In this document: positions 3,878 through 57,239 of the stretch, in pieces
Position numbering within the stretch: the first letter of the stretch is position 1
Layout: every line of letters starts with the position of its first letter
NCBI GenBank assembly: GCA_964016885.1
Contig: OZ024744.1
Span: 34,472,001 to 34,536,000 of the forward strand
Source: Eledone cirrhosa
Taxonomy: Eukaryota
Direction of reading: 5' to 3'
DNA length: 64,000 bases
The notes under the pieces: generated by a model
What the model was told of the DNA's origin: nothing
What the model saw: only the letters and a program-made list of their open reading frames with translations
Databases searched by the model: none
Translations under genes and position numbers: made by a program

Positions 3878-6800
3878 ATGCCACGGCGAAAAAGATGCCT
3901 ACTTGGTAGATCTTCAGCTTCAGCTTTAAAAATGAAAAGAAGACGGTTGGAAGAAACGCCACAAATGACTCAATCCAGAAGAACTCACGAAGCTTCCCTT
4001 AGAGCTCTTGCAAGAGCTGCGACTGAAGATGGAGAACGTTCAAAACGACTAGACAGATTATTCCGCCAAAAGAAAAATGCTGAAGCAACTGCTATTGCAC
4101 GAGCTGCAGAAAACGAAACAACGTTCGCTGCGACAGCAACGAAATGCTGCATCAACTTCTGCTGCTCGAAATGCAGAAAACGATGCTCAACGCTCACTGC
4201 GAGAGAAAAGAAATGCAGAGGCAACTGCTATTACACGAGCTGCGGAAACTGAAACACAACGTTTGCTGCGACAACAAAGAGATGCTGCATCAACTTCTGC
4301 TACACGCGCTAGAGAAACCGTTGAACACCGACAACAACGGCTGGGCGAGAACGCACGTCGCAGAGCTTCTGCACGGGGTCTTTCAAAGCCTTGCAGATCA
4401 CGGTGGTCGCTTAAGGCATTTAACTATGACCCAAACGATAGTTATGAGACGCACCCAGATATCCAAATTGGTTCTATGTCTACAATTTGCCCGCTTTGCA
4501 ATGCTAAGAAATGGCCAGAGGAAGCTAAAGGAATGTGCTGCGCCAATGGTAAAGTCAAACTGCCCCTTCTTCAGGACCCCCCTCAGCCGTTGAAGTTCCT
4601 ACTGACAGGCGCGACGTCGGACTCGAGAAAATTTCTTCGTGAAATTGTCAGTACAACTGCGCCTTCCAAATGACCTCCTTCGGATCAAACATTGTCAATG
4701 AAGGTGGATTTATGCCTACTTTCAAAGTACAAGGGCAGGTTTACCACAGGATCGGATCTGTGGCAAATGCAGAGCACAACTTCCTTCAGATTTACTTCAT
4801 TGCTGACTACAGAGAACAGGCAGAGAGACGGAAAGCCGTTTCACCCAAAACCAACCCAGAGCTGCTAATTCAACTTCAAGAAATGCTGCATGCGAACAAC
4901 AGTTACGTGCTTAGCTTCAAATACACCCTGGAAAATGCACCTTTAAACAACTTCAACTTGGTTCTCAATGCTGAAGAAAGACCACCCTGAGAGGATGCCG
5001 GTCGCTACAATCTACCCGTATGCAATAAAGTTGCTATAGTCCTCCATTGTGATCAACACAACAGAAGAGATGTTGTTCTTAAACGTCGTGACAACACCCT
5101 TCAACTGATCAGTAAGATACACAGATCCTACGATGCACTGATGTATCCACTTCTCTTTCCGCATGGTGAAAACGGATACCACACCACAATTCCGCAGTTC
5201 AACCCACTGGCACCTGACCAACCTACCAATAAGACAGTGTCTTGCATGCAATTCTATGCCTACCACTTCATGGTCTGCGACAACTGCTTTAACCACCTTC
5301 ATCGTTCACAACAACTATTCAACCAATTTGCTGTAGACATGGCCGCGAAAATGGAGACTGAACGACTGTGCCTCATAAGATTAAACCAGACAAAACTACG
5401 CTGCGACGATTACATTCACCTACGTGATGGAATGAACAATAATGAAAACCCAGATAACATTGGAAAAGATTGCATTTTACCTTCAACCTTCGAAGGAAGT
5501 CCCCGTTGTGTGTATTCAAGAACCCAGGACGCGATGACGTATGTGCGCGTGTACGGCAACCCAGACCTATTTATTACTTTTACAGGCAATCCTTCGTGGC
5601 AAGAAATTGCCCATGAACTCCTTCCAGGACAACAGCCCAGCGGTCGCCATGACCTCTCATCCAGAGTCTTCGAGCTAAAAGTATACAAACTAATGGACCT
5701 TATCACAAAGGGCCAGGTATTTGGACGTGTGCAATGTTACATGTACACAATTGAATGGGAGAAGCGGGGGACTCCCCCATGCTCACATTTTTATTTGGTT
5801 GTCGACAAAAATCAGAGCAGACGACATCGATAAGATTATATCCGCAGACCTCCTAAACCCGCAAACTGACAAAACCCTATTTGACAGGTTACGGCGCACA
5901 TGGTTCACGGTCCTTGTGGACGTGTCTTCAAATCTAACTCCCCGTGTTTGAACAACGGTATTTACTCCAAAAAATACCCAAAAGCATTCCTTCGCGAAAC
6001 TCAAACTGCTGATGACGGATACCCATCATACAGACGAAGGAGCCCTGAGGACGGAGGATTAACAGCACTGGTTGGAAAACATGAAATTGACAACCGATGG
6101 ATTGTACCGTACTGCCCATTACTACTCAAGGCGTTCAACTCCCATATAAATGTTGAATGGTGCAACTCTATTAAATCAATCAAATATGTCTGCAAATATA
6201 TAAATAAGGGCCCGGATTCCGCCATGTTCGGGCTTAAAGAAGAAAACAAACGGGATGAAGTTGCACAGTACCAATCAGCACAATATATAAGTACCAGGGA
6301 GGCCTTTTGACGAATTTACCGTTTCTCAATGCACAGAAGACACCCTGCCGTCCAACAGCTTTCTATGCACCTGGAAAACGGCCAAAGAGTGTACTATACA
6401 AAATAAACAGCTTTTCTGAGGGCTCTGCAACCAAGGAACACAACTCTTCCTGCATTCTTTCAACTATGTCAAGGCGACGCATTCGCTCGCACTTTACTGT
6501 ATCCCCAAGTCCCCTCTTTCTACAAATGGGAAAAATATTCATGGAAGCCAAGAATCAAAGGTGAAAGCGTTGATGGTCATCCGGATTTTAACTTTGACAG
6601 CTGCCTGGCGCGAGTTTACACAGTGCCTCTCATCTACCAAGAATGTTACTACCTGCGTATGCTTCTCCATGACGTAAGAGCACCAACCAGTTTTCAACAC
6701 CTAAGAACTATTGATGGCCAAATTTGGGACGACATGTACAAAGAGGCCTACTTTAGGCGTGGACCACTGGAAGATGGTGCTCAGTGGGATGCCACTTTGG

Positions 6801-8512
6801 CAGAAGCAGTTGTTTCACAAATGCCATACAGCCTTAGGAAGACTTTTGCTGTCTTACTGTACATTTGTGAATTGCCCGATCCTTCCTTCTTGTGGCTCAA
6901 GTACAGAGATGACCTCTCTGAGGACTTCAGACATCAAGCACAATTACAACTTCCTGACATGGAAGTAGGCTTCACAGATGAAATCTACAACAAAGCACTT
7001 ATTGGAATTGAAAATATGGTTGCTGCAATGGGTGGGAATGCACTGCAGACATATGGCCTGCCCCAAACCAACAGAACAGGCTCCGACGTCATTTTCGCAG
7101 AAATACTTCGGGAACGATCCTACGACACTGACAGATTGGCTACATATGTCACTGAATATGAACCAATGCTGCTGCAGGAACAGGAACGAGCATATAACAC
7201 TATTGCTGACTGTGTCCACCATCGTACGGGAGGAATCTTTTTCTTGGGCGCCCCTGGAAGCACAGGGAAGACTTTTGTCATACGGCTTCTCCTTGCCAAG
7301 GTTCGACAACACAGACACATAGCACTTGCTGTTGCATCTTCCGGTATTGCAGCAACCTTGCTTCCTAGGGGCAGGACAGCACATTCTGCCTTCACAATAT
7401 GACAGCAAATGACACACCCTGCTGTAATATTACCAAAGGATCAATAAAGGCAGAACTGCTTAAAAGGTGTGAACTTATAATTTGGGACGAATGTACCATG
7501 GCTCATAAAGGAGCTTTGGAGGCACTGGACCGGACTTTAAGAGACATAAGAGATTCCCAGGATCCCATGGGAGGCGTGATTGTCCTTTTATCCGGAGATT
7601 TTAGACAAACCCTCCCTGTTATTCCCAAAGGAACAATGGCTGATGCTATTCGAGCATGCTTAATGTCATCTCTGATTTGGCGTTGTCACAACATTAACGC
7701 TCTCTACGAACATGAGAGCTCGGATGCTTGGTGACCAAGTGTCATCAGATTTTGCTACCAACCTATTGACACTTGGAAACGGCAAAGTGCCACTTGATGA
7801 AGATGAAAAAATCTCCCTTGAACCGGTCTGCACTTTAGTCGACAGTGCTGACGACTTGACAGGTGCAGTATTCCCTGAGTTGAGCACTAACTACCAAAAT
7901 CCAAACTGGCTGTGCGAAAGGGCAATACTGGCTCCGAAAAATGAGACTGTCGACAAAATCAATGGACAACTGCTTAAGTCTCTTCCTACAGCTTCGTGTA
8001 CATACAAGTCCATCGATACAGTCACAGACCCCATTAACTACCCAATTGAGTTTCTTAACTCATTGAACCCCTCCGGGTTGCCATCTCATCGATTGGAACT
8101 TAAGCAAGGATGCCCAATTATGCTTTTGAGGAATCTACACACACCAAAACTCTGCAACGGCACCCGCCTTACAGTAAATAGACTAACGCAAAACTTGATC
8201 GAGGCGACGATTCTCTCGGGGTGTAGAAAGGGGGAAAATGTTTTTATCCCAAGGATACCCCTTTGTCCGTCAACATCAGAGATCCCCTTTTCATTTAGGA
8301 GGCTCCAATTTCTTGTTCGTTGTAGTTTCGCTATGACGATAAATAAGTCTCAGGGGAAAACATTGTCCGTCGCGGGAATAAACCTAGAAGAGCCTTGCTT
8401 TTCACACGGTCAGCTATACGTTGGATGTTCCAGAGTGGGAAGCAAAAGAAACCTTTATGCATTTGCTCCAAACGGTAAAACCACAAACATTGTGTACCAA
8501 GAAGTTCTGTAA
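3878..8512 (+). pseudogene. Helitron RepHel transposase (Zn finger, HUH Rep, PIF1-like SF1 helicase) with multiple frameshifts and stops
   Basis: CPLCNAKKW..MCCANGK; Rep motifs PDLFITFT, IEWEKRG/LPHAH, KYVCKYINKG; helicase motifs GAPGSTGKT, IIWDECTM, GDFRQTLPVI, FAMTINKSQG, FSHGQLYVGCSRV, spread over consecutive ORF fragments. Confidence 0.95.
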
Positions 8513-9158
8513 TCAACACTGCGACACAAACCGTCTTCTAACAATCAAATACCTCGCTGCTTTCAATAATTACCAAATTGTAGACATACTGCCTTTTTGA
8601 AATTCATAACACCATACTTTTCAACTGTAAACGTTGTGACCACTTTTAGCTGCACGGTATTGAAATGCACGTTCCCCTCTGGTTGGTTGAGCCAGTTTTC
8701 CATGGATTCGCCAGCGCGTGCAGCAGACGTTGATTCACATATCTTTGTTGCCGCAGTTGACGCCGTGTTTCAGTTGATACAGCTCAAACAGTAGACGTTG
8801 ACTCACAGTTCTTCGCTGCCGCAGTTGACGCTGTGTTTCGGTTGATGCAGCTCGAGCTGCGGAAGTTGCCTCAGCATTTCTATGCCGCCGTAATGAATGC
8901 TGTTGTTCATTCTCTGCATCTCCTGCAATAGACGTTGCCTCAATATTTGCTTTCTGTCGCAGTGAGGGTTGAGAATCGTTTTCTACACCTCAAGCAGCAG
9001 CAGTAGCCTCAGCATTTATTTGTTGTCGCATCGAACGTTGTGTTTCGTTTTCTGCATCTCGTGCAATAGAAGCTGCTTCAGCATTTTTCTTTTGGCGTAA
9101 TAATCGCTACTTCGTTATTCTCTGTTACTTTTGCAATCGTGGTTGGTGCAGAATTTGT

Positions 9159-11234: not shown

Positions 11235-11289
<55 letters not shown>

Positions 11290-11292
<3 letters not shown>

Positions 11293-11650
11293 TATGTATA
11301 CGTACATACATATATATATGTATACAGATGTACAGTAGTATATATATATACATACATGCACACATATATATATATGTACGTATGGATTCAACAAACATTT
11401 ATTATAATGCTCGGTGTGTTTGTAAACAAACATCCCGTATTAAGCCGTCGTGTCTAGCAACCACCGTTGCTCGTTTGTTCAACACTGACAAAGGAACGCT
11501 GTACTAGTTTCAAGCTTGTTAGCTATCGTCAGCAATGTATACCTTCCTGCCAGATAGTTGAACGTCCGAAAGTATATACTTTCCTTATGCATATTAACGG
11601 CTGAGCTACGCCTTAATACGGGATGTAAGCGCAGCCTAATATTGCCTAAA
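11290..11650 (-). mobile_element. Retrozyme-like family B partial monomer with an intact HHR core at 11497-11537
   Basis: Minus strand: CAUUG-CUGACGA-UAGCU-AACA-AGCUU-GAAA-CUAG-UA-CAGCG. Confidence 0.78.
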
Positions 11651-11751: not shown

Positions 11752-11924
11752 TTTGGCAACCATTCACGATGTGGCTCAATGACGTATTAATTAATTAAAT
11801 AATCAACAATCAGAGCAATATACAATAAAGTATGTCCATAGAATCATTTGATAAAATATATACACCATTTCTTCTCCCAATCAACATATATATATATATA
11901 TATATATGTTGATTACTTTGTTAC

Positions 11925-13364
11925 ACTTTGGGAGGGTCATGTTGTCAATAAGAAACACACGCACCAGTTGCATTCACTCAAATTTATTATAAATTAAATT
12001 TATAAATTTCCGGTTGGTTGGGTGGTTCCACAACCGGACGGTTGTTCATATATTGTCAAAGTTCTGTGACCTCTTCAGTGACTGGAGATTCTTTTCTTTG
12101 TTTTTGCCTCTCTTTTGTTCTGTCCTACGTTGTTTTTGTGTGTGTTGTGCGCTTAGTTTGCGCATGTGTTACATCCGGGTGTCTGTGTGTGTTTTTATTT
12201 GTTTATTTACATTTACTGGTTGGTTGTTTGTTCTATGTGTGTGTGTTTTCATTTTGTCCTTAATTGTAAATTGTGATATTGCTATTCCATTCATGTTTTC
12301 TATTTAATTTTGGTTGGAGTTCATTTATGTTTATTGCCTCTGTGATTTGTCTAAACATTGCGTCTTTTCTGTGTGTAGATTCTATTTTTATTTCTATGTT
12401 CTCTAATTTGCACTTATGTTCTATTTTAGCATGTTGGTGGAGTATTGATGATTCTTTTCTATCTTGAAGCTCTCGCCAGTGTACATTTAATCGTTCTCCT
12501 ATACTACGAGCTGTCTCACCTATGTACACTATATTCTTATCTTTACATTGTCCTTCAGTACATCTTATGCTATATACTATGTTTCTAATTTTACAGTTAA
12601 TATGAGGGCTTAGTTTACAGATTATGCATTTCTTATCTATACAGGGAGGTCTTTGAAAAGGGTATGTATTACTAATAAGTGTTTTTATGGAGGTACCTGG
12701 TCTTTCTACTATCTTAATATTTAGTTTAAGTTTATTTAGGGCCCTTCTAAATTTGTAAGCTAGCTCACCTCTAGGGGTTGTATTGATGAACATTACACTC
12801 TGGTATTTATTGCTATCATACCATGAGTTTATTCTATTATTCTTATTCCTAGTTCTTTCTATTCTATTCCAAAATTTGCTCCTATACAAGGGGCAGGTCC
12901 CATTTGTATCATTATTTACCATTTTTTCCCATTTGGTTCTGGCTCCTCTATATACTCTGATTTTATCTCTCTGATTGTAATCATTGAACTGCATAAGGTG
13001 GATGAAGTGTTGTATGTTTCTCTCTAGTTCTTTGGGGTTGCACATGCGGGACACGTTTCTCATCACCCGTACCAAATCCGCAATCAGTATGTTGATTTTG
13101 GTGTGATCCGAAACAGCTGAGTTTCGGTGGATCAGATATTTGGAAGTTATGGGTTTGGCATAATGGGAATGGAGGATTTTTGTTGTTGTTATTAATGCTT
13201 TCTAACCAGAGCTCTGTGTCTAGTACAGGTAATCGATGGTTGGGGTGTTTGCTTGGGCAACTTGGGTGTTTGCTTATTGGCAACATGACCTTCCCAAAGT
13301 ATAACAATATCGGTTTCAACACACGTTTTCAGATAAAGAATCTTGCTAAACAAATTCAGAAACG

Positions 13365-13370
<6 letters not shown>
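11925..13370 (-). mobile_element. 5'-truncated PLE (Naiad-like) with 3' pLTR and an inverted pLTR piece at the truncation point
   Basis: RT end PSKHPNHRLPVLDTELW, then GIY-YIG ORF. pLTR at 11925-12140 has an internally deleted HHR. 13272-13370 is the pLTR tail in the opposite orientation. Confidence 0.85.
12260..13075 (-). CDS. PLE RT thumb, Cys linker and GIY-YIG endonuclease (C-terminal fragment)
   Basis: CxxxxCxxC linker, IVYSIRCTEGQC..VYIGETARSIGERLNVH, HQHAKIEH, RQITEA, LNRKHEWNS. Confidence 0.85.
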   Translation of the reverse strand: MVRVMRNVSRMCNPKELERNIQHFIHLMQFNDYNQRDKIRVYRGARTKWEKMVNNDTNGTCPLYRSKFWNRIERTRNKNNRINSWYDSNKYQSVMFINTTPRGELAYKFRRALNKLKLNIKIVERPGTSIKTLISNTYPFQRPPCIDKKCIICKLSPHINCKIRNIVYSIRCTEGQCKDKNIVYIGETARSIGERLNVHWRELQDRKESSILHQHAKIEHKCKLENIEIKIESTHRKDAMFRQITEAININELQPKLNRKHEWNSNITIYN

Positions 13371-13412
<42 letters not shown>

Positions 13413-13951: not shown

Positions 13952-16480
13952 CGTGTGCGTGTGTGTGTTATTATACGTCCGTACGAAACTAAGAAGAAAT
14001 ATGTGTATATATGTAAGTAAAAGAGTGTGTGCTTGTAAGTACGAAGCTACGAGCAAGAGTATGTTAATATAAGGGTGTGTATATGTGTATACAGAGATGT
14101 GAAGGGAAAAATGGAGTGTGCATATTTAGTCGGTCTGAACTAGTTGTATGAAAAGATTTTTATGATCATGAGAGAGCGATAGGAATCTAGGGGTGAATGT
14201 ACAAGCGCGTGTGATAATGGACGAGGTATTAAAGAAATTGAGGAGGTGAGTTGATTCCATGAGGGAAATAGGACCCAAGCCGGTGAATCAGACTCTGTTC
14301 AGTCCTGGTACGCGAGGCCTGTGATCCATGATGTTAAAGGACATCCAGGACTGAGACATGTAGGGAAGAATGACCAGGAGAACAGAAATAAAGGGCGACA
14401 GGAGTATCCATACCGAGTTGTATGTCCCTCAAATGCTCAGCAAAACGGTCCGCCGTACGGCGTCCCATTTATCCGATGTTTAAAGACCCGCAAAGGGAAC
14501 ACCGGAGGGCATAGACAACGTACGTGGATGTTCACGTGAAAGAGTGGCAGATACGGAAAGACCCGTTAGGGCCTGTAAGAGTGGTGAGGGTGGAAATAAA
14601 GGGACAAGTGTTGCAGCGGGGACGAGAACAAGGATAAGAGCCGGGTGGAGTCGTGGGAGAGGACGAGAAGGACCTGCGTACAAGGAGGTCGTGGAGGTTG
14701 CAGGTGTACTTAGATGCAGTAATGGGTGCGTTTGGAAAAAGCGAGAAGTGACGGAAATAGGATATGGAGTGTTTGGTGAGAGTTGGATGGAAGAAGGTGA
14801 AGTCGAGGTAAGAGTCGTAGTCTGTTGGTTTATAGAAGATGGAAGTAGAGAGGGTGTGGTGAGAGTAATTGATAGATAGATAGATATCTAGAAAAGGGAC
14901 AGAAGAATCGGAGACGGAAGTGGTGAAGGTGAGAGCAGGATGGAAAGATAGGACAAAAGATAGAAAACAGTCGAGGTGTTCTCGTTATAGAGAGGTGGTG
15001 CCGATACAGTCGTCGATATAACGACCGTATAGCTCAGGAGTCGGTCCAGCGTACTGGGGGAAGATCTGGGCTTCGACGTAGCCAACAAACAAGTTGGCAT
15101 ATTTTGGTCCCATTTAGGTTCCCATCGCTACTCCAGACACCTGCTGATAGAATTGCCCCGAAAAGGATAAGCGATTGAGAGTCAGAACAAGCTCAGTCAG
15201 ACGGGGAAGAATGGTAGTGCTGGGGTAAGGGGTGGTGTAAGGCTAAACAATGCTGGAGAGCGCGGAGACCGTCATCATCAGGGATGACGGTATAGAGGGA
15301 GGTGATGTCCAGGGTAAAGAGAAGGGGAGAGGAGCCAGGAGGGAAGGAGAAGGAGTTGAAGAGCCTAATGGCATGATTGGTATCCTGGATGTGGGAGGGA
15401 AGATTGCCGACCAACAGGGCGAGGATGGTGTCTAAATATTCAGAAATTATCTCGGTGGGGCAGTTGCACGTAGAAACGATAGAACGGCCAGGATTATTTT
15501 GTTTGTGTATTTTGGGGAGGAGGTAGATGGAGGGTGTCCGAGGGGTGCGTACAATAAGGTTGGTGGCTGTGAGGGGTAGGTGAGATGAGGAGATGAGCTG
15601 GTCGATGGTGGAGGACACGAGTTGTTGGTAGCCAGCAGTGGGGTCGGAGAATAAAGGACGGTAAAAAAGGGTATTGTGAAGCTGGCGGAGAGCCTCAGCC
15701 CTATAGGGGTCAAGGCTCCAAACCACCACATCGCCACCTTTGTCAGCGGGTTTGATGACAATGTCATCGCGACGCCGAAGGTTGCGAAGAGCGGAGAGCT
15801 CAGTCCGCGTGATGTTGGAGTGACGAGAATGCTGGTGGAAACGGAACCGATTCCCAGTACGCCGTCAAGTATCGACAAAGGAGTCGAGGGTGCTGAACTG
15901 GCCAAAGCTCGGTGTCCAATGTGATTGCCAGCGACTGAGACGAGTGAAGTCATCCGTCTGTGTCGATGATGGCGTGTCGTGAAAAATAGCTTTTAGCTTT
16001 AATCGAGGGAAGAATCTTTCAATCTCGGCACGTGTACGGAACTCGTCGCAGGTAGATGTGGTTAGTATAAAATACAAACCACGGGCGAGGAGGGGGCGCT
16101 CAGCTTCGGAGAGTGGTAGGTGCTGGGGTATGATGACTACAGTGCAGGGACGTGAGGGCGTGAAAGGGGCGGAGGCGGAGGGTTTAAGGTGGATAAGCAA
16201 AGCGTGTGCAGATTCAGTGGTGGGGAGAAGAAAGGGGGTGGTAGGTGACGGGATGGAGGGGTTAGGGTTGGAGGTGAAATTAGTATGGGTGGTGACGTCA
16301 GGCGGGGAGCGGAGTGAGTGGAGTTTGTTGTTTTTTATGGAAGTGAAGGAAATTGAAGAGGAGGCGATTGAGATAAAGGATGAATTGGATAAGGGATTCG
16401 GCGAGGGTGGGGGTGGGGGGTGGCAAGTAGGGGAGAGATGGAGGCAGGCCTTGGGGAGATGTATCTATATCACACACACA
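13520..16480 (-). mobile_element. Degenerate PLE (Neptune-like) with RT, GIY-YIG, 3' UTR and pLTR
   Basis: IYLLPKIHK..PGRSIVSTCNCPTE, LFTLDITSLYTVIP, GVAMG region near 15120-15135, GIY-YIG near 14400-14520. Degenerate HHR at 13603-13641 (CUUGUGA-A-GGAC/GUCC-GAAACGUC). Confidence 0.85.
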
Positions 16481-16849: not shown

Positions 16850-17596
16850 AATGTAAGTATGTATGTATGTATGTATACGTACATACATATATGAATACAG
16901 ACGTACAGTAGTATGTATATACATACATGCCCACATATGTATATGCACGTATATAAGGTGACGTGGTTGCCTAAACACTATACGGCGTAATTCGGGCTGT
17001 TTGTTTGTTTACAAACAAACAAACCGAGCATTATAATAAATGTTCGGTAAACCGATACGTGCATATATATATATGTGTGCATGTATGTATATATATACAT
17101 ACTACTGTACGTCTGTATACATATATGTATGTACGTATACATACATACATACTTACATTTAAGTAAGAGCCGTACTAAGAGTAAGAAATGAAATTTCGTT
17201 TCATTCTATTCCATTTATCGTTTTCGGTGCGCCCGGCCGACTGAACTCACTCGATATGCAAATTAGGCTGCTCAGCCGTTAATTTGCATAAAGAAAGTAT
17301 ATACTTTCAGACGTTCAACCACCTGGCAGGAAGGTATACAATGCTGACGATAGATAATAAGCTTGAAACTAGTACATCGTTCCTGTGTCAGTGTTGAACA
17401 AAAAGGTGACGTGGTTGCCTAAACACTGTACGGCTAATTCGGGCTGTTTGTTTGTTTACAAACAAACAAACCGAGCATTATAATAAATGTTCGGTAAACC
17501 GATACGTGCATATATATATGTGTGCATGTATGTATATATATACATACTACTGTACGTCTGTATACATATATGTATGTACGTATACATACATACATA

Positions 17597-17600: not shown

Positions 17601-17629
<29 letters not shown>

Positions 17630-17735
17630 CTAATTTCTGCCGGACCGGCAACCGCTCTTTCAAACCAGTTCCTGTACACAGCTAAGTATTCTATAAGTCT
17701 CTAGCTGTGTCATTCTCGATAAAAGCACTGGATAT

Positions 17736-17778
17736 GTAGTCCTGATGAATTCTAACAAGAATGAAACGCGTAGATTAC
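17736..17778 (+). ncRNA. Minimal type I HHR (family A, copy 1)
   Basis: GUAGUC-CUGAUGA-AUUCU-AACA-AGAAU-GAAA-CGCG-UA-GAUUAC. Cleavage predicted after A17772. Confidence 0.9.
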
Positions 17779-18045
17779 TTCCCTTGCTTTTATCGAGAAT
17801 CTAATTGTAATACGTGACGTATTCTATTCTATAGCGATTAGGTCTTCAAAATGTTTATTATAAACATACAGAATATTTTCGAATATTCTATGTCTATATT
17901 CACATATATATCGCTATTTCAGAGCATTTATTCCAATTTCTAATTTCTGCCGGACCGGCAACCGCTCTTTCAAACCAGTTCCTGTACACAGCTAAGTATT
18001 CTATAAGTCTCTAGCTGTGTCATTCTCGATAAAAGCACTGGATAT

Positions 18046-18088
18046 GTAGTCCTGATGAATTCTAACAAGAATGAAACGCGTAGATTAC
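18046..18088 (+). ncRNA. Minimal type I HHR (family A, copy 2)
   Basis: Identical to 17736-17778. Confidence 0.9.
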
Positions 18089-18355
18089 TTCCCTTGCTTT
18101 TATCGAGAATCTAATTGTAATACGTGACGTATTCTATTCTATAGCGATTAGGTCTTCAAAATGTTTATTATAAACATACAGAATATTTTCGAATATTCTA
18201 TGTCTATATTCACATATATATCGCTATTTCAGAGCATTTATTCCAATTTCTAATTTCTGCCGGACCGGCAACCGCTCTTTCAAACCAGTTCCTGTACACA
18301 GCTAAGTATTCTATAAGTCTCTAGCTGTGTCATTCTCGATAAAAGCACTGGATAT

Positions 18356-18398
18356 GTAGTCCTGATGAATTCTAACAAGAATGAAACGCGTAGATTAC
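18356..18398 (+). ncRNA. Minimal type I HHR (family A, copy 3)
   Basis: Identical to 17736-17778. Confidence 0.9.
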
Positions 18399-18520
18399 TT
18401 CCCTTGCTTTTATCGAGAATCTAATTGTAATACGTGACGTATTCTATTCTATAGCGATTAGGTCTTCAAAATGTTTATTATAAACATACAGAATATTTTC
18501 GAATATTCTATGTCTATATT

Positions 18521-18583
<63 letters not shown>

Positions 18584-19754: not shown

Positions 19755-19987
19755 TCAGAGTTAAGAATAATGTAAATAAATTACAGAGGTTATTGAAATC
19801 AACAAAAATTAAATAAATACATGCACGCATCCATATATGCCTATACACATGCATACGCGGAAACACCCGCCATGGGTATGCAAATACAAGCACGTACAGA
19901 AAAATACGCGCGCACATACAGAACCCACGCAACGCCTGTACCCGCACACATACGAACGTATACACCAAATACACATAAAAACATATA

Positions 19988-20028
<41 letters not shown>

Positions 20029-20134
20029 CACCAACAATGTCGAGCATAATAAGAAGAAGCTTTATAAGTTTTTTAAAAGCTATAACCTTTCGATCACGAT
20101 AGATAGAAATGATAGAGCGGTCAACTTTTTAGAT

Positions 20135-21604
20135 GTGACTTTGGACTTGGTCACCAATAGTTTTAAACCCTTCCATAAGCCTAATGAAATACTTTCCTAT
20201 GTTAGTCCCAATTCTAACCACCCCAAATCTATGATAAGCTCTATAATTAAGGGTGTATCTAATAGGATTTCCACACTCTCTAAGGACGTAGGAACATTTA
20301 ATGAACATGCGGAGTACTATAATAATGCCCTAGCAAATTCCGGTTACTCTAGTAAAATACATTATAATAATAGTAACCTTAGAAAGTCTCCGCTTATTTT
20401 TAATAATAATAACATAATATCACATAACATGGCCATGAATGGGAGTAGGAAGCATAATAACCGTAAAAATTACATAGGTGTATCTGAACCCATCCATAAG
20501 TTAACCCACGGGACTCGTAATAGTGAATATAATACCTCTAGGAAACAAGTCGAACCCTCTGAGCGCTCACTCATTGGTGATAATTTTGCCGGATCTTATT
20601 CTAATAATGTTGCTTCTACTGATCCTATTATTGGCCCTAATCCTTTTGATGGGATTCCGGACAGCGGCAGATCTACTGGAGGTAGAAACGGTAATAGACT
20701 TAATGGAATTTTGGCTGATTCTAAGAATGCGGTTTTAACTAATCCTTGTAGTAACCCTAGTCTCGATGGTGGGATATTTGATAATGGTAGAGTCGGTAAG
20801 AATAAAAATAGAAGGCGATTAAATACTTATTTTAACCCGCCATATAATCAGGAAGTATTAACTAATATCCCTAGGTCTTTCTTTTCTATCTTAGAGAAAA
20901 ATGTCCCCCCTTCTCATAAATACCATAGTATTTTTAATAAAAATGTTATTAAACTTTCATTCTCTACCACCCCTAATATTAGTTCTCATTTAGCTAGCAC
21001 TAACAATAGGAAAATTAGGGATGGATTCTCCTCTCTACATACTACTAGTCTGAACAGATCTGGAAATGCATTACCACCAGAACAGACCTTATCTAATAGC
21101 AATCCTACGTGTAATGCATCACCACTTGAGCCAACCAATAACACCCGGAAGTGCAACTGTAGAGTGAGTGCTAACTGCCCTTTAAACGGTAACTGCCTCT
21201 TTAAGAACATTGTCTATGCTTGCATAGTTATAACTAATTCCTCTAATAGAACTTATATCGGCTCTACATCTAACACTTTTAAGACTAGGTTTAACTCTCA
21301 TATCTCTAATTTCAAACATGTTAAGTTTAAGAATTCTACTTCTTTAGCACATTATATCTGGGATCTTAAGGGGGCTAATATACCATATAGCCTTAACTGG
21401 CGTTTAGTAGCACGCTCTAATAACCTTTCTACACATACTAAATTTTGTAATCTCTGTATCCTCGAGACACACTCTATAATTTTCTCTAGCGAATCCTTAC
21501 TTAATAGAAAGTCTGAGATATTCTCTTCTTGCCCCCACGCTATTTCTAATTCATACTTTTATTATAAACCTAAAGGTTCTAGTAGTACAAATTGTATCCA
21601 TTAG
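20135..21604 (+). CDS. PLE RT C-terminus and GIY-YIG endonuclease, open over 489 aa
   Basis: FLDVTLDL..FHKP..SNHP; YFNPPYN; CNCR..CPLNGNC; IVY..TYIGSTSNTFKTRFNSH; CNLCILE; LLNRKSEIFSSCPH. Confidence 0.9.
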   Translation: MTLDLVTNSFKPFHKPNEILSYVSPNSNHPKSMISSIIKGVSNRISTLSKDVGTFNEHAEYYNNALANSGYSSKIHYNNSNLRKSPLIFNNNNIISHNMAMNGSRKHNNRKNYIGVSEPIHKLTHGTRNSEYNTSRKQVEPSERSLIGDNFAGSYSNNVASTDPIIGPNPFDGIPDSGRSTGGRNGNRLNGILADSKNAVLTNPCSNPSLDGGIFDNGRVGKNKNRRRLNTYFNPPYNQEVLTNIPRSFFSILEKNVPPSHKYHSIFNKNVIKLSFSTTPNISSHLASTNNRKIRDGFSSLHTTSLNRSGNALPPEQTLSNSNPTCNASPLEPTNNTRKCNCRVSANCPLNGNCLFKNIVYACIVITNSSNRTYIGSTSNTFKTRFNSHISNFKHVKFKNSTSLAHYIWDLKGANIPYSLNWRLVARSNNLSTHTKFCNLCILETHSIIFSSESLLNRKSEIFSSCPHAISNSYFYYKPKGSSSTNCIH

Positions 21605-22894
21605 CTGATATATTCCATTACTTATTTTTTAGTTTAGGTTCTTTTGTTTACCACCATTATTATCATCATTATTATCATTGGTTTTTGACGACTCTTTATT
21701 CTAGCTCTCATAATCTTTTGGCTACTATACCATATCTATCTTCTTACGCATTAAATTTTCACTATTAACACCTTATGAATATATATCTGATTATATATTT
21801 TACATTATTTTATTTTATTTTATTTTATTTTATTTTATTTTATTTTATTTTATTTTATTTTTATTTTTATTCGTATTCTTCTTTGGATAACCCCCCCCCC
21901 CTTCTTCCCCCCATGCGCACATAAACTTATTGTCAACCCCTCCAAATAGACTGATTATATTTAACCCCCCCCCCCTCTTTTACGCTCCTTTCTATTATTT
22001 AATATAATGCCCCTTTGTATCCTCCATATATTTCTTTATTTCTGTCCCTATTAGTCTACCATAATTCTGCTTAAGTCAGTTTTTTAGATATCGTTATGTA
22101 TATGATAGTAAAAAATTTCAATCCTTTTTGTAAACATTTGTAACGAAATATTAACGTTTATAAACTTTAATTACTTAAACTATAGCTAATATTATACTGC
22201 CTTATTGGATATTTTAAATATTTTTAATATTAATTTATCAAATAGGGTTTTCGAGTCATTTACCGGGGTTATTTCCTTAGTTTTTACTTAACTGCATGTG
22301 AGACCTAAATGTATACTTTTGTTTTTGTTTTTTAATTTCCGGTTGATTCTATTTATTTATTTTATTTTATTTTATATTTTATATTTTATATTTTATTTGT
22401 AATACTAATGTGCATTATATTTACTGTCTGGCCCTTACTCACTCATCCACATACATGTCTGTTTACCAACCTTGTAATTATAAGTAATTATATATTATAT
22501 TATGTTAATTATTTTATATAATATATTATATTATATTATATTGTATTTGTTATTGTAATATCGATCCCCATTTACTTACCGTTAATTATATGTAACATTA
22601 TGATATGTTAAACTTTATATATCATGTAAGATGTTTATATTTTTTTGTACCATCATAATTTTTGGGTATTGTACAATTTATTTTTCCTCACCTACTCTGT
22701 AACTCTATATGAATTGATTTGTTAACTTGAATGCCATTATATATTGTATATTATAAATGTTAGTATATTATTATTATAGTATTATTGCGACATCTATATT
22801 GTTTGTGTAAATTAACCGGAGATTATCTATTCTATTCTATTATATTATATAGTATATAATTGTATAGTTTATTATTTATTATATGGTGATGAAT

Positions 22895-23075
22895 TGGCAG
22901 TATCGGTAGAGGGTTGGACGCCATGCTTTGATACATAGAGTTACGGCCCTTGCCATTCTGAGTTCAAATCCCGCCTAGGTTAATTTTGCCTTTCATCCTT
23001 ACGGGGTCGATAAAATAAAGTACCAGTAATGCACTGGCATAATTGCTGGCCTTGTGCCAAAAGTAGAAACAATTA
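22895..23075 (+). mobile_element. tRNA-derived SINE (octopus-type family)
   Basis: Pol III A-box-like TGGCAGTATCGG and B box GAGTTCAAATCCC. Shared body GCCTTTCATCCTTACGGGGTCGATAAAATAAAGTACCAG. Confidence 0.85.
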
Positions 23076-23587
23076 TTTATTATATGTGCTACTTATAATA
23101 ATATCATATTATTACCTCATGTATATTGGGTATATGTATTATTATTATTATTATTATTTTCATTCCTATCATGCTTATTTATATTTAAACTCTTAATAAG
23201 GTTTAATTTGTGCAGTTGAAGATGGATATGTGTATTGATGTATGTGTATGTGTGCGTACGTGTGCGTACATATATACATATGTATATTGTACCTTTTAAT
23301 TTTTATTGTAATTTTAATATTGGTAAAGGTATATTATATTATATTACATTGTATTATATATAATTCCTGCTCTATATAACCACCTTTGTTTAGCTCTAGG
23401 GTTTTTTTGCTTTGGACTATATTTGTAATATGGTTCTTAATGTTATACACCTCCTTAGTAATTTTTATTATATATTTTTATTATATATTTTTACCCATAA
23501 TCTTGCAATACTTTAGTGTATGTACACTCCATATTCTTCGGAGTTTCCGGCTTGTATTGGCCGATAATACTTCTTGTTGTTTTAATT

Positions 23588-23625
23588 GCCCTGATGAGTC
23601 CTTAATAGGACGAAACATTGTCGGC
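23588..23625 (+). ncRNA. Minimal type I HHR in a PLE pLTR
   Basis: GCC-CUGAUGA-GUCCU-UAAU-AGGAC-GAAA-CAUUG-UC-GGC, followed by AATAAA. Confidence 0.92.
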
Positions 23626-23687
23626 TAATAAAGACTTTTGATGTATTGAAGGCTTCTTTGTTTTATTTTCTTAATTCTTAATTTCTT

Positions 23688-23786
<99 letters not shown>

Positions 23787-24189: not shown

Positions 24190-26470
24190 CGTTAGCGTAT
24201 AATGTGGGGCTGTAATACAGGAAAGTTTTGTGCAATTTATGTTTACAAGTCGAAATTGCCTCAGACTTTTTGTTTAAGATGTGGTCATTGGCGTAGAGTA
24301 TTCCAGGGCTTCAGCCGCGCAGAGGTCACATGGTCTTTTATTTCCATTATACGATCTAGCCTAAGCTAGGATGTCCCAGTGTAAATTATATTGGGTGTGG
24401 TTGTCTTTTAGACTCCAGATATAAGCTGAAAGTGACGTCATATTCCTTCTTAAACGGTTAAGAAAAGAATGGGTATGCATGTAAAGACGCTGCTTGAATC
24501 TATTGGCGGTTAACCCCATGTAGACCCTACGGGACGTGGGTGTTTCAACCTTACAATGTTACTAGAGAGGCCTTTCCCCGATAGGGGACAGTCAACCTGA
24601 TTCCTACAATTACAGTTAGTATTAGCTACAGGGTTGCACGTGTTCCTACGGCTAGGTAATTTAGCTAAATTTGAAGCTGTGATGTCATGTGCAAGGTTAG
24701 GAGTTGTAGAGTAAGAACTTTTAATGGTATTTCTATTAAAAATTTTACTATATTTATGTGCTGGGGGAAATGCTTCATAATAAGGGAGAGAAAGATCTTA
24801 GCTAATGGTCTGGCCACCTCCATATTATATGGTGGGTTATACCATATAATGCGTCGGGATCTATTTTTCCTAGGTCTATTCTCATACTCGGTATATGCTA
24901 CCTTATCGACAAATCCTCTCCGAGCAAGAGCTTCATTGTAATATGTGGAATGGTCGGTGAAAATATGCTCGTTTGTAGATAGACGGGAAAGCCTCAAAGA
25001 GACGTTTCGTACCAGGTTCTTGGTTATGCTGGCAGGATGGTTAGAATGCTTACTTATGTAATTAATCGTATCATTCGGCTTTCTATACGACAAATTGAGG
25101 GTAACGTCGAAGTAATTAACGACCGCGAGGTTGGCCTCAACCTGTATGGAGAGGTTGAAGCCTTTAAAGAAGGCTGTGAGTTCCTTTCTGAACCTGTCGC
25201 AAGCATGTGGGCCGCACTTTGTCATGGACAAATGACCGTCATCAGTGTACAAACCACCGCCCACATTGGGGAATTCTTCCTTGATAGAGAAAAGAAGGAA
25301 ATGGCCGATAAGATCAGTAACCTCCGCAGAATCGCTGGCGCCCATACTCACGTCGAATGGGGTACTATTAGATTTTTTAAATCCAAATAGAGTCGTAGAT
25401 ATTAATCACCAACTTAGGGGTATTGAGGATGACATCAACTTCGAAATCCTTAACCACTGTGAGTGTTTTAGCGAAATTGATAGCTCTAAGGAGAAGTGGT
25501 AAAGTGATGGATGAGTAGTAATTATTGATGTCGAATTGGATAAAACGGCAATGTTCCTTGTTGCATATGCCGTCGAACCAATCAATCACCGCGAAAGAAT
25601 TATTCCACAGTGCAAGAGGAGCCAAACTTCTAATTTCAGGTATAATTCTATCTAAAATCCTTTTACTAAGTTTACCTAAATCGGACTTCGTAGGGTTAAT
25701 AAGCCGAATAGAGAGGTTGTTCGGGAAATTGGATTTGTGATCCTTCAGGGTAAAAGTGGGGAGAAATAGGGTCGAGAGGTTCAGTCCGGTCCAGGATGTT
25801 GAGATCAGAGGTGATTTTAAAACCAGCATCGTTGATGTCATTAATGGCGCTCCGATTAGTTTTACGGTAATCCTTAGTTATAGCATTATGTAGCAGTTGA
25901 TGGTGAGTACTCCGCTCCATTTGATATAGATTGCCAGTTTTGTCGGAGTGGACGTGCACGGCATTAGAATCCTTAATAGAACGAATTCTATTCTTCAGGT
26001 CCTGCTGGAAGGAATTGCTCCTATACCGAAATTTGATACTCCGTATGAGTTCCAAGACATCATTTTCGAAGGGTAGCAATGCTGGGTTACTCGGAGGGTT
26101 ATTGTAGTTTTTAAACCCAAATTTATCCTGTTTGTTGTCCGCTTTTCCCTGATTATCGAAATAAAGGGCACGCCAACGCAACCTTTTAATGAACGCGTCT
26201 GTTTTCTGTATCAGGAGTTTTAGGTATGTTTTCCTGATTGGTACGGGTATGTTCTTTGTAGAAATATTCAGATGTTGTTTCTGCATGATGAATATAAGTC
26301 AATAGAGGAGATACCGTTTTCAGATAGAGCCCCCCCCCCCCCACACACACACATATATATATAGTAAAATAAAACAAGGACGAATGGTTACTCCTTCATT
26401 ACGTTTATTGGTAGGTGACGCGCGTTTCGCCGCGGATCAGCTCAAGGTTCGATCTGTATCGATCTAGCCC
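24190..26470 (-). mobile_element. Near full-length degenerate PLE (Nematis-like)
   Basis: STKNIP..FIKRLRWRA; HSDKTGNLY; TLKDHK..RLINP; FIQFDINNYYSSI; MGASDSAEVTDLIG; LYTDDG; WYNPPYN; GIY-YIG near 24250-24610. The 3' half of an HHR (GAAACGCGCGUC..AAUAAA) lies upstream at ~26404-26432. Confidence 0.9.
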
Positions 26471-27060: not shown

Positions 27061-27619
27061 TTTATCTCTTAAACATTCCGTATTAAAATTATTATACAAC
27101 ATATATATACGTTTACTGCTCAAGCTGCTAGAACTAGCAGCTATATCATATACAAGCAATAAACCAATTAGGCCTACTTACACAAAAGTTGAATACACCT
27201 CCTATACTGAAAACAAAAACATAAATGAAAACTTTTCAATGACACTAAGTATACATTATCTTTCTCCCTTTCCTTACCTCTCTCAGCCTCTCAGTCTGCT
27301 AATATGCAAATCAGGCCGATCAGTCACTGTATATTTTAGCAAATATCATACATTTTCACTAGCTCAGACAGTTGACAGATAAGCAGTATACGGTTCTGAT
27401 GAAGGGTAATCACCCAGAAACATTAGTGTCTGCAGTTCTGTTTACATTCCAATACAAGAGCAAGAATGAGGGGTTCATTCTACTGACATGGCTTAAAGAG
27501 GCTGTTGGCATGATTGCAACCGAATCGAATATTATTTACTTTTACGTGTAGACAGCGTGTGTGTGTGTCTGTCTGCGATACACGCCGCCCATCCGTCGTC
27601 CGTCTTCCAAGTTAGTTTT

Positions 27620-35544: not shown

Positions 35545-35624
<80 letters not shown>

Positions 35625-35633
<9 letters not shown>

Positions 35634-35797
35634 TATATGTATGTACGTATACGTACATATATATATGTGTGCATGTATGTGTATATATATACATACTACT
35701 GTACGTCTGTATACATATGTGTATGTACGTATACATACTTATATTTAAGTAACAGCCGTACTGAGAGTGTGAAATGAAATTTCGTTTCATTTTTTCC

Positions 35798-35842
<45 letters not shown>

Positions 35843-36390
35843 TATGTATACGTATATGTATGTACATATATGTATGTACGTGTACATACTTATATTTAAG
35901 TAACAGCCGTACTAAGAGTGAGAAATGAAATTTCGTTTCATTTTTTTACATTTATCGTTTTCGGTACCCCGGCCGATTAACTCACTCGATATACAAATAA
36001 GGCTGCTCAGCCGTTAATATGCATAAGGAAAGTATATACTTTCAGACGTTCAATCATCTGGCAGGAAGGTATACGGGGCTGACGATAGCTAATAAGCTTG
36101 AAACTAGTACAGCGTTCCTTTGTCAGTGTTGAACAAATGAGCAACGATGGTTGCTAGACACTGTATGGCTTAATTCGGGATGTTTGTTTACAAACACACC
36201 GAGCATTATAATAAATGCTCGGTAAATCCATACGTACATATATATATGCGTGCATGTATGTATATATATATATAATACATACTACTGTACGTCTGTATAC
36301 ATATATGTATGTACGTATACATACTTATATTTAAGTAACAGCCGTACTAAGAGTGAAAAATGAAATTTCGTTTCATTTTTTCCGTTTATA
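35625..36390 (+). mobile_element. Retrozyme-like family B partial tandem (435-bp period); HHR at 36074-36114
   Basis: ATACTTATATTTAAGTAACAGCCG recurs at 35886 and 36321, with a further partial copy at ~35735. Core intact, helix I weakened. Confidence 0.8.
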
Positions 36391-42620: not shown

Positions 42621-42660
<40 letters not shown>

Positions 42661-42675
42661 ATAATAATAGTATTA

Positions 42676-42733
<58 letters not shown>

Positions 42734-42789
42734 ATAATAATAGTATTAATATATATATAAATATATATATAGTAATAATAATAGTATTA

Positions 42790-42851
<62 letters not shown>

Positions 42852-42863
42852 ATAATAATAGTA

Positions 42864-42898
<35 letters not shown>

Positions 42899-42939
42899 AA
42901 GAACACAAGAGCGTCTACAACATCAAAAGGTTTTTATTG

Positions 42940-42984
42940 GCTTACAATGTTTCTTCCTTACGTAACCGTAGGATTCGTCAGAGC
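42940..42984 (-). ncRNA. Minimal type I HHR in a probable orphan pLTR
   Basis: GCU-CUGACGA-AUCCUACG-GUUA-CGUAAGGAA-GAAA-CAUUG-UA-AGC, then CAATAAA. Confidence 0.78.
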
Positions 42985-43573
42985 TATAAAAGGGGTTTGA
43001 TTGGTGTTCTGGACTCTACCAACCAAACATTCAAGAACAAAGAGTAAAGAGAGTAAAGAGCAAAAGTAGGGGACGATAAGTCTAATTTTGGTGCGGGAGG
43101 GTGGGGTGTGGGTGTTTACTAGCTGCGGTCATATTCATTCCCGGGAGTCGGGTGGTTAGCTGAACCATAGATGGGGTGGCGTCGATAGTATGGTGCAGAG
43201 GGTGTGCAGAGGCTACACAAACACAAAGGGCATACAATATATATATATATAACGGAGGAGAGAGTACATGAGGTAATTAGAAATGGAAAAAGAGTAATAA
43301 TAATAATCTATAATTAATAGTGTATAATAAGGCATGGGGAAGATTACACTATAATAAGGTATAAAAGTAAGAATAAGGTAAAATATAAAGGAGGATAAAA
43401 GTGGAAATAATAAAGATAAAAAAATAAAGATAAAAAAAATATATATAGAGAATATATAAAGAAATATAAGCGAATATTTGGAGGGGAAAACACAATGTAA
43501 AAAAACCGATTTTTTTCAAATAATAATAAAAATATAATAATTATGGGGGGAGAAAACGGGATAGAGAAATATG

Positions 43574-44211
43574 ACTAGTACAGCGTTCCTTTGTCAGTGT
43601 TGAACAAACGAGCAACGGTGGTTGCTAGACACTACGGCTTAATACGGGATGTTTGTTTACAAACACACCGAGCATTATAATAAATGTTCGGTGAATCCAT
43701 ACGTGCATATATATATGTGTGCATGTATGTATATATATATATACATACTACTGTACGTCGGTATACATATATGTATGTACGTGTACATACTTATATTTAA
43801 GTAACAGCCGTACTAAGAGTGGGAAATGAAATATCGTTTCATTTTTTCCGTTTATCGTTTTCGGTGCACCCGGCCGATTAACCCACTCGATATGCATATT
43901 GGGCTACTCAGCCGTTAATATGCATAAGGTAAGTATATACGTTCAACAATCTGGCAGGAAGGTATACGTTGCTGACGATAGCTAACAAGCTTGAAACTAG
44001 TACAGCGTTCCTTTGTCAGTGTTGAACAAACGAGCAACGGTGGTTGCTAGACACTACGGCTTAATACGGGATGTTTGTTTACAAACACACCGAGCATTAT
44101 AATAAATGTTCGGTGAATCCATACGTGCATATATATATGTGTGCATGTATGTATATATATATATACATACTACTGTACGTCGGTATACATATATGTATGT
44201 ACGTGTACATA

Positions 44212-44215
<4 letters not shown>
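43574..44215 (+). mobile_element. Retrozyme-like family B, 1.5 tandem copies with a 422-bp period
   Basis: ACTAGTA|CAGCG at 43574-43585 and 43996-44007. The two copies are near-identical. Confidence 0.85.
43967..44007 (+). ncRNA. Minimal type I HHR (family B)
   Basis: CGUUG-CUGACGA-UAGCU-AACA-AGCUU-GAAA-CUAG-UA-CAGCG. Confidence 0.88.
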
Positions 44216-44248
<33 letters not shown>

Positions 44249-49355: not shown

Positions 49356-49399
<44 letters not shown>

Positions 49400-49680
49400 T
49401 ATGTACACGGACATACATATATGTATACAGACGTACAGTAGTATGTATATATATATACATACTACTGTACGTTTGTATACATATATGTATGTACGTGTAC
49501 ATACTTATATTTAAGTAACAGCCGTACTAAGAGTGGGAAATGAAATTTTGTTTCATTTTACCCGTTTATATATATATATATATATAGTAATAATAATAAA
49601 TTTGAAGACTAAAATCCAAAGAGGGCTCGATAAGGATAGATATATAACAAATATATAAAAACCGTAGGGCAAATACTTAT

Positions 49681-56300: not shown

Positions 56301-57239
56301 TATATAAAGAAAAAAAGGATGAAATCGAAAATGCAACTGGAGTCTTATTTAAAAAAATATATATATATTTATTTGGTTCCTTCACCGGTTTCGCAGTTCT
56401 TCTGCTTTTCAAAAGTAGAGTTGAGATGGAGGGTCTCTGGTTTTTCTCACATCTGTGAGAAAAACCACTCGTGAAGGACACCTCGGTTATTTTTCATTTT
56501 GTAAAAAACCTCACTTTCCAATAATATATATATATATATAGGCATACACTCACATGTATACATATGTACGTATGGCTTATATCGAACATTAATAATTATG
56601 TTCGATTCGTTTGTAAATAAACGACCTGATTTGAAGCTGTGTTGTGCCGGTGACTGATTGTTTTCCGTACAAAATCCCGCGAATTCCACAAGGGTCAAGA
56701 GTGAAGAAAAATAAAGCTATTTGCTTTATGGGGGTGTATAGGTTTCCTTGCATGGCAACAGAAACTGTTCAAAGATGTTTCTTGATATGATAAGTGGATT
56801 TGATGTAAGATCTTCATCTTTATATATCCCATCTAAACTTATGCTTATAGTTTACATTACGGAAACTTTGTAAAAAGGCTTTTTACCTCCATGCTAGAAA
56901 TGCTGCTAGCGATGTTAGATTGCCGTAAAATATCTCTGAATTCAACGGATTGTCATATATCATATCCCTCTGATGTATATTTCCTTTTGATACCATTTCG
57001 TTGTTTAGCGTTTCTATCAGTATATGTATTGATTCGTAAGATTTTAGGTCGAAGGAGCTTATATTGAGTCTTTGCATAGTCAAAGATGTATACTAGTCTG
57101 CACTCTCTTCCTATGAATGGGCTAGGCCTCTTTAAGAAATTTCTCAACGAGGAGCAAGTCTGCTTTCTGGACGCTTGGGATAGATGGGGCGCCTTTCATA
57201 ATTCAAAGGGCGCGGGAGGGTTATTTTTTATTTTCAAAT

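Follow-up and report, generated by a model that had tools for sequence, protein, structure and literature searches.

The 64-kb stretch of Eledone cirrhosa DNA analysed here (the window) carries at positions 43574-44218 (+) an insertion built of a 422-nt repeat, here called family B, which raises the question of what kind of element this is and by which route it has been copied. Our reading, which we regard as likely, is that the repeat is a non-autonomous Penelope-like element (PLE) of the kind known as animal non-LTR retrozymes, and that it is copied by a Penelope-type enzyme encoded elsewhere. The class is known; judged from its sequence, the repeat is likely a new retrozyme family member.

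The repeat, its hammerhead and its copies

The focal insertion consists of 7 nt, one full 422-nt monomer running from cut to cut (43581-44002) and monomer positions 1-216. Its 3' end lies at the site that we call A, in a (TA)n target tract (44214-44242, no strand). Between site A (43796 in the full monomer) and a second site, B (43855), lies a 59-nt 'tail' (43797-43855, +). The focal copy belongs to the youngest subfamily, and its first 640 nt recur letter for letter at four other loci (L009, L012, L018 and L024).

A type I hammerhead motif occupies 43966-44008 (+), as judged from a motif scan, a circular fold and pair counts. By the motif scan it has a 6-bp helix I, a helix II made of a U-U pair and 4 bp, and a 2-bp palindromic helix III, which bears out the initial annotation on the palindrome. 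The core starts at 43972 and the predicted cut falls after 44002. The best circular fold of the monomer includes helices I and II, with pair probabilities of 0.45-0.94 and 0.9-1.0, respectively, and in the predicted fold helix I is prolonged as a bulged rod (approximately 43941-44027). Compared with shuffled sequences the monomer fold has a z of -7.4, or -5.9 with the TA-rich part removed, and all four hairpins that had been named from the sequence, AGCAAC/GUUGCU included, are found in it. The same U-U at the base of helix II and the same 2-bp helix III are found in the axolotl HHR_Amex2 (PMC7229834), and hammerheads of this build are reported to cut weakly as monomers (PMC7229834, PMC4209133). 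Among the best 150 of 251 Rfam rows there was no hammerhead match for the 422-nt family; these rows held low-complexity microRNA matches and two weak hammerheads of other families.

In an alignment of 43 distinct rows, 92.8% of the cells in paired positions pair. The variable pair of helix I is U-G in 25 rows, A-U in 10, G-U in four and C-G in one, and is unpaired in three, so the change from U-G to A-U with pairing kept, noticed earlier in a single copy, is real. One helix I pair is altered on both sides in 14 of the 43 rows. These changes probably go back to one or two inherited events, and the covariation is therefore real but thin. The invariance of the core was not counted as evidence, since the rows had been chosen by the core motif.

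BLAST recovered copies at every site named in the initial annotation, with slightly shifted bounds, as well as the periods of 422 (43581-44002), about 435 and 448 nt. On the minus strand, a one-armed copy at 2076-2472 extends from monomer position ~285 across the junction as far as 275 (site B) and into (TA)n, and its hammerhead core is changed (G8 to A). The other one-armed copy on this strand (11283-11605), from ~327 to site A and also into (TA)n, has a ~21-nt inverted piece at its 5' end and a weakened helix I. The copy at 16863-17595 (+) belongs to an older subfamily with a period of 448. Its main arm (~16955-17595) ends at site A into TA and is preceded by an inverted arm (16863-16952), and its hammerhead has the A-U variant in helix I and a mismatch in helix II. 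The region at 35.6-36.4 kb does contain family copies, but what had been taken for one copy comprises two neighbouring insertions with a TA tract between them: a short one without a hammerhead (35552-35803, +), ending at site B (35803) into TA, and a two-armed one of the 430-type subfamily (35840-36389, +), with a short inverted arm to site A, a main arm to site B and a disrupted helix I. Likewise, the presumed fragment at 49.4 kb is family sequence but a complete two-armed mini-insertion (49390-49569, no strand), flanked by TA on both sides and lacking a hammerhead, in which the minus arm leads to site A and the plus arm to site B. The hammerhead that had been ascribed to each full unit is recognisable in all five, but only the one at 43972 is fully intact; pairs in helix I or II are broken in the 11.5, 17.3 and 36.1-kb copies. 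Many old family copies have damaged hammerheads.

Exact hammerhead cores number 12,315 in the genome of 3.0 Gb (33-nt pattern; a control pattern gave 0), and the longest stop-to-stop frame in a tetramer of the monomer has 53 codons, in agreement with the earlier description of the repeat as abundant, non-coding and hammerhead-bearing. Thirty-five 10-kb stretches at arbitrary positions held two clear insertions and two weak matches, which extrapolates to some 17,000 insertions in the genome (95% range 2,000-62,000); the density in the window is above the genome average. All of the 40 best genome DNA matches are 100% identical, from which we conclude that the spread is recent. Most units measure 414-433 nt, with one of 470 and one of 503, and the subfamilies comprise a young one of 422 nt, one of 430 nt with an 8-nt insertion, and one of ~470 nt that is 78% identical. 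A large young array, in which approximately 100 nt of the right flank are duplicated inside together with a short arm, lies at G000:C1:231.81 Mb (L004-L009).

The combination of a type I hammerhead with short, low-GC, abundant tandem units devoid of coding capacity is that of the retrozymes, for which a unit length of about 150-450 bp was taken as the criterion. Metazoan non-LTR retrozymes are likewise non-coding tandem units of a few hundred nt, with a GC content under 45% (here 38%) and one hammerhead of type I per unit, as here (PMC7229834). The units described here (422-470 nt) are slightly longer than the 170-400 nt RNAs of that study. For the retrozymes of coral, mussel and axolotl, expression, cleavage and circles have been shown (PMC7229834); in the 422-nt family, self-cleavage and a circular RNA are predictions.

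Some 80 nt upstream of the hammerhead core lies an octamer-like motif (43892-43899, +), which is ATGCAAAT in the older subfamilies and has one change in the youngest, that of the focal copy. Of 276 family hammerheads, a set that includes overlapping loci and is thus not independent, 226 have an octamer-type motif 80-100 nt upstream of the core; the same spacing recurs in three related clusters and in nine of the 11 hammerheads of the old subfamily. The motif occurs once in one of the other 21 clusters, against a background of 0.03 per kb. From its position it is possibly a promoter element. The idea of an snRNA-type promoter, which comes from newt satellite 2, was dropped, as the upstream regions of U2 genes (four of 15 fetched U2 loci) had no octamer and aligned with the monomer in AT-rich sequence only. 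A tandem array of approximately 40 U2 snRNA genes with a 2.2-kb period lies at G000:C3:307.35-307.45 Mb. Distant relatives of the family were detected by profile in the window at 27301-27535 (+) and at 56580-56645, within a relative that spans 56519-56645 (-), both with the octamer, a long helix I and a shared hairpin, and at the loci L043, L110, L194, L241, L254 and L303.

Other hammerheads are also present in the window. Directly after the 17-kb copy there is a separate 310-nt hammerhead tandem (17626-18531, +) of 2.9 identical units with a palindromic helix III; it ends in (TA)n and is present at locus L200 too. Motifs of other families occur at nine or more further sites (18684, 19526, 23591, 40941, 42981, 44650, 49298, 52381 and 55935), several of them as inverted pairs anchored in (TA)n. 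One and the same hairpin-type repeat flanks two family B copies on their 5' side, one with the repeat at 2473-2760 of the window and the other at L275, at differing offsets.

The ends of the insertions

For a survey of the ends, pattern matches on contig C1 were taken in order from 0 to 26.3 Mb and merged into 60 regions, from which 64 pattern-bearing insertions were classified, edge and pattern-less clusters being omitted; the sample is conditioned on an intact hammerhead. An end was assigned to site A at BLAST positions 208-224 and to site B at 263-276, windows that together cover 31 of the 422 positions. Of 100 outer ends, 40 fell at site A, 44 at site B and 16 elsewhere. The exact junctions are monomer positions 216 and 275, each after TTAT and 59 nt apart (BLAST gives 219 for the true 216, because the alignment overruns a mismatch). 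Outer ends at A or B are usually joined to (TA)n; contigs of run X1 likewise have loose ends into TA at 43796 and 43855. When the pattern was tested genome-wide, just nine copies ran past site B into sequence that is neither family nor TA.

The two sites are used as a pair. Among 36 two-armed, head-to-head insertions there were 25 with one arm at each site (A+B), none with A+A, one with B+B, which is a 25-nt fragment, and 10 with at least one end elsewhere. After removal of one duplicate A+B pair, 24 of 25 are A+B (p = 8e-7 against independence). The smallest two-armed insertion (L192:2060-2110) has ~22 nt to site B and ~16 nt to site A between TA tracts. The inner (5') ends (n = 98) are spread evenly round the monomer (chi-square p = 0.75), and two of the 98 lie within 5 nt of the cut. 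The arms meet through short shared or hairpin sequence. The targets are (TA)n microsatellites or AT-rich flanks. A copy inside a Hydra ORF (L282) has a target duplication of ~8 nt, and on these two grounds its interpretation as a co-insertion was ruled out.

The copies had initially been described as having circularly permuted ends. This holds in so far as the positions of the 5' ends vary. The 3' ends, in contrast, are confined to 216 or 275, and the 5' ends are therefore truncations rather than circular permutation. Target-primed reverse transcription typically leaves dispersed copies of this kind, fixed at the 3' end, truncated at variable 5' positions and targeted to TA, and we infer that monomer positions 216 and 275 are the start sites of the reverse transcriptase.

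The same set of features, namely two fixed 3' ends, 5' truncation, an inverted arm and a tail at one end, is what PLE mobilisation leaves behind. Described for PLEs are truncated 5' ends, partial tandems, a copy that is both inverted and truncated, and a tail confined to one end (Craig 2021, PMC8557442); the tail is bounded by two internal RNA start sites of reverse transcription, and the enzyme extends both target strands (Frangieh 2024, PMC11167929). With the EN+ PLEs, including Poseidon PAc and Hydra/Naiad, family B shares 5' truncation, partial tandems, the inverted arm, the one-end tail, (TA)n or AT-rich targets and a hammerhead near the 3' end (PMC11167929, PMC8557442). Those elements have an ORF and a tail of 30-40 nt, whereas the 422-nt family has no ORF and a 59-nt tail (PMC11167929, PMC8557442). 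In addition, the start site of PAc in vitro was the same on both strands, while the genomic B copies use one site per arm (PMC11167929); the pairing of one site with one arm is not predicted by the in vitro work, which describes no strand difference (PMC11167929). For metazoan retrozymes, the available text of PMC7229834 describes neither fixed paired ends nor head-to-head arms. No paired-end rule for a retrozyme, and no such family in this kind of genome, was reported in the literature covered, which lies largely outside the subscription journals.

Since the ends of family B match the tail design of PLEs, including that of the ORF-bearing family N of this genome (see below), mobilisation by a PLE can be inferred. 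Against it speak the 16 outer ends of 100 that lie outside A and B, the small number (nine) of copies that continue beyond site B into other sequence, and the fact that in five PLE families of the genome no autonomous member with a related terminal repeat was found.

The template of the proposed reverse transcription

The insertions could arise as follows. Tandem copies would be transcribed, and a PLE protein, probably as a dimer, would bind the RNA around monomer positions 200-280 and cut a (TA)n tract on both strands. Of the two DNA ends, one would prime at site A and the second 59 nt further downstream, at site B, and each cDNA would run back through the hammerhead junction, for between ~20 nt and seven units, on a template that is effectively longer than the unit. 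Joining of the two cDNA ends by short homology would give a head-to-head insertion with the tail on one arm only, and loss of one cDNA a one-armed insertion. Both arms would usually, though not always, come from the same source.

Circular templates have been proposed earlier for both PLEs and retrozymes, and the initial annotation had taken the permuted partial tandems of the window as the trace of a circular RNA. This argument is not supported, as ORF-bearing PLEs make the same tandems and inversions (PMC8557442). Genome-wide, 18 + 26 = 44 breaks were counted at the ribozyme cut site and 65 at a control position (10), point mutants adding to all three of the counts 18, 26 and 65. As 5' ends do not pile up there, a linear monomer released by the cut is disfavoured as the template; the counts are compatible with a circle, with a multimer left uncut or with efficient jumping between templates. 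Two points tell against the circle: the weak cutting reported for monomers of this hammerhead build, and the finding that hammerhead cleavage was not required for insertion in the one PLE tested in vitro (PMC11167929).

The subfamily markers bear on whether every insertion might be a rolling-circle copy of a single monomeric circular RNA, started anywhere, a strict model that we find unlikely. In its favour are the missing pile-up at the cut site, the closure of helix I across the junction in the circular fold, and the homogeneity of young arrays across both arms. At the 8-nt indel, 36 of 43 multi-unit insertions are uniform, and the two arms agree in 21 of 27 pairs and are mixed in six, where random draws would give agreement in ~52% (p = 0.005); several arm pairs even carry a variant present in no other insertion. 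However, agreement between arms is also expected from one subfamily being dominant at a given time or from conversion between the inverted arms, and the starts are fixed rather than free. The remaining seven of the 43 insertions are mosaic, several of them at linked diagnostic sites. A single monomer circle cannot explain these, and as a universal rule the strict model already fails. At L285 the units alternate in a pattern that is broken by the first unit, which points to local duplication after insertion; a dimer circle was considered for this locus and rejected, as the first unit lacks the variants that the periodicity needs. Mosaics and local duplication together mean that not every tandem comes from one monomer circle. 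Counts of RNA-editing scars gave A>G 54 versus T>C 34 (one test out of six, with p = 0.025) and, for G>T, p = 0.04.

Within the PLE reading, we therefore leave two kinds of template side by side: a cut and re-ligated circle, whose chance we put a little below even, and an uncut multimer and/or jumps between RNAs, put a little above. A more inclusive proposal, offered tentatively and in our opinion rather doubtful, is that the insertions record in vivo how a PLE dimer allots one start site to each DNA strand and copies small RNA circles made by the ribozyme, at times from two distinct circles together, and that the passengers form a superfamily with an octamer-type promoter of its own ~80-100 nt upstream of the ribozyme. 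If true, the genome itself would directly support the route through a circular template, and the family would be a simple substrate for testing it. The origin of PLE tails and inverted arms, and the movement of retrozymes by circular RNA and PLE enzymes, are left open in the available texts of PMC8557442, PMC7229834, PMC11167929 and bioRxiv 10.64898/2026.07.22.740005. Family B offers thousands of young ORF-free insertions that follow a strict one-site-per-arm rule, the exact predicted start sites 216 and 275, and subfamily markers that reveal whether two arms share a template, which makes the route directly testable.

Penelope-like elements of the genome and a possible partner

Retrozymes have been proposed to be PLE derivatives (Li, Clavereau, Pollet 2026, bioRxiv 10.64898/2026.07.22.740005). 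The Xenopus retrozymes of that study share with family B the co-occurrence with PLEs and the monomer, dimer and multimer copies, and cleavage was observed in just one of nine elements tested (bioRxiv 10.64898/2026.07.22.740005). There the link to PLEs is similarity to PLE terminal repeats (pLTRs), 24 of 57 families having matched known elements, nearly all of them PLEs (bioRxiv 10.64898/2026.07.22.740005); for the 422-nt family the link is the anatomy of the insertions and, unlike in Xenopus, no matching pLTR was found in five families. Mobilisation by a PLE, with circular templates, has been proposed for metazoan retrozymes as well (PMC7229834). Among the PLEs of Chlamys, MRC1 is likewise a protein-free passenger with multicopy head-to-tail insertions (PMC8557442), and the non-autonomous elements resemble their autonomous partner at the 3' end, while the elements of Chlamys mostly lack hammerheads (PMC8557442).

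The search for a partner combined protein, DNA and exclusion-pattern searches. Five families (N, H, H2, P and one Neptune-like) were checked, in a genome that holds many more, and none has a terminal repeat related to the monomer. Clade labels were given by motifs in comparison with PMC8557442 and by tblastn, not by a tree, and Pfam gave no match on seven PLE ORF pieces (10 proteins scanned). The ORF-bearing family N is represented in the window at 11886-13406 (12260-13201, -), with a C-terminal GIY-YIG and a CX4CxxC linker, and with an inverted tailed arm. A first look at the genome gave ~36,500 candidates for this family. In a set of 30 copies, 14 have a ~56-nt tail before the end, 10 stop short in TA, one ends otherwise and five are unanchored. 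Its tail of ~55-58 nt is the closest in length to that of B, the sequence being unrelated, and its top matches are only 90-96% identical to the window copy. Two ends are likewise present in the Hydra-type families P, H and H2, whose tails are longer. Family P has a tail of ~97 nt and an 800-codon ORF in L365.

It is family P that the focal copy touches. The 3' terminal repeat of this young Hydra-type PLE (42895-43573, -), with its own hammerhead at 42981, is joined head-to-head to the focal copy with 1 nt common to both, and its other end lies in (TA)n at 42621-42894. The P arm has four differences from the majority within the element, three of which are common to other copies, leaving one private difference in 671 nt, and the B arm has none in 640 nt; both pieces are thus young. 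Their youth, the head-to-head fusion and the TA at both outer ends would fit a single event in which the P enzyme inserted both P and B, and P would then be the partner. We consider this improbable. Both arms stop at their short sites, yet A+A is the combination found in none of the 26 classified two-armed insertions of B, and the P tail of ~97 nt contrasts with 59 nt for B. The focal locus is also the sole P fusion among 58 one-armed flanks, most of which are unrelated sequence, as a target deletion would give. A deletion during one-armed insertion is the simpler reading of the fusion.

The repeat might instead be merely the pLTR of an autonomous PLE and its copies 5'-truncated ends without independent life, a view that had been tied beforehand to fixed ends attached to a PLE ORF. 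The fixed 3' ends were found, their anatomy is the same as in ORF-bearing PLEs, and the focal copy adjoins a Hydra pLTR; an ORF with reverse transcriptase and GIY-YIG collinear with the monomer was found in no copy examined. The arms cross up to seven monomers and never leave the monomer, and in the 58 one-armed 5' flanks examined there was no ORF that would belong to the element. The Hydra pLTR that touches the focal copy is a different sequence in the opposite orientation. We therefore hold this explanation to be very unlikely, and still less credit is due to the idea that a satellite or fold-back repeat has multiplied as DNA, by duplication and conversion, with the hammerhead as a passenger. 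In favour of this idea, L285 is a local duplication, mosaic units could be gene conversion and the hammerheads of the window are mostly damaged. However, the copies are dispersed, and their constant 3' ends, variable truncation on the 5' side and preference for TA speak for target-primed reverse transcription; the helix I changes between subfamilies, moreover, preserve pairing.

Two Hydra-type PLE families are present in the window at 19979-23690 (+) and 24665-26298 (-). In copies elsewhere in the genome, frames of 950-1080 and 713 codons, respectively, are open, so that both families have likely been active recently; a motif scan 3' of the ORF of the 713-codon family found no hammerhead. The window also holds a decayed Neptune-like PLE (14532-16464, -); in a related family the open frames measure 800-990 codons and the 3' region is long and rich in pyrimidines. 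A further mobile element, a Helitron with Helitron_like_N and Pif1 domains and 68-69-bp repeats, lies at 4053-8960 and is partly duplicated at 1-739.
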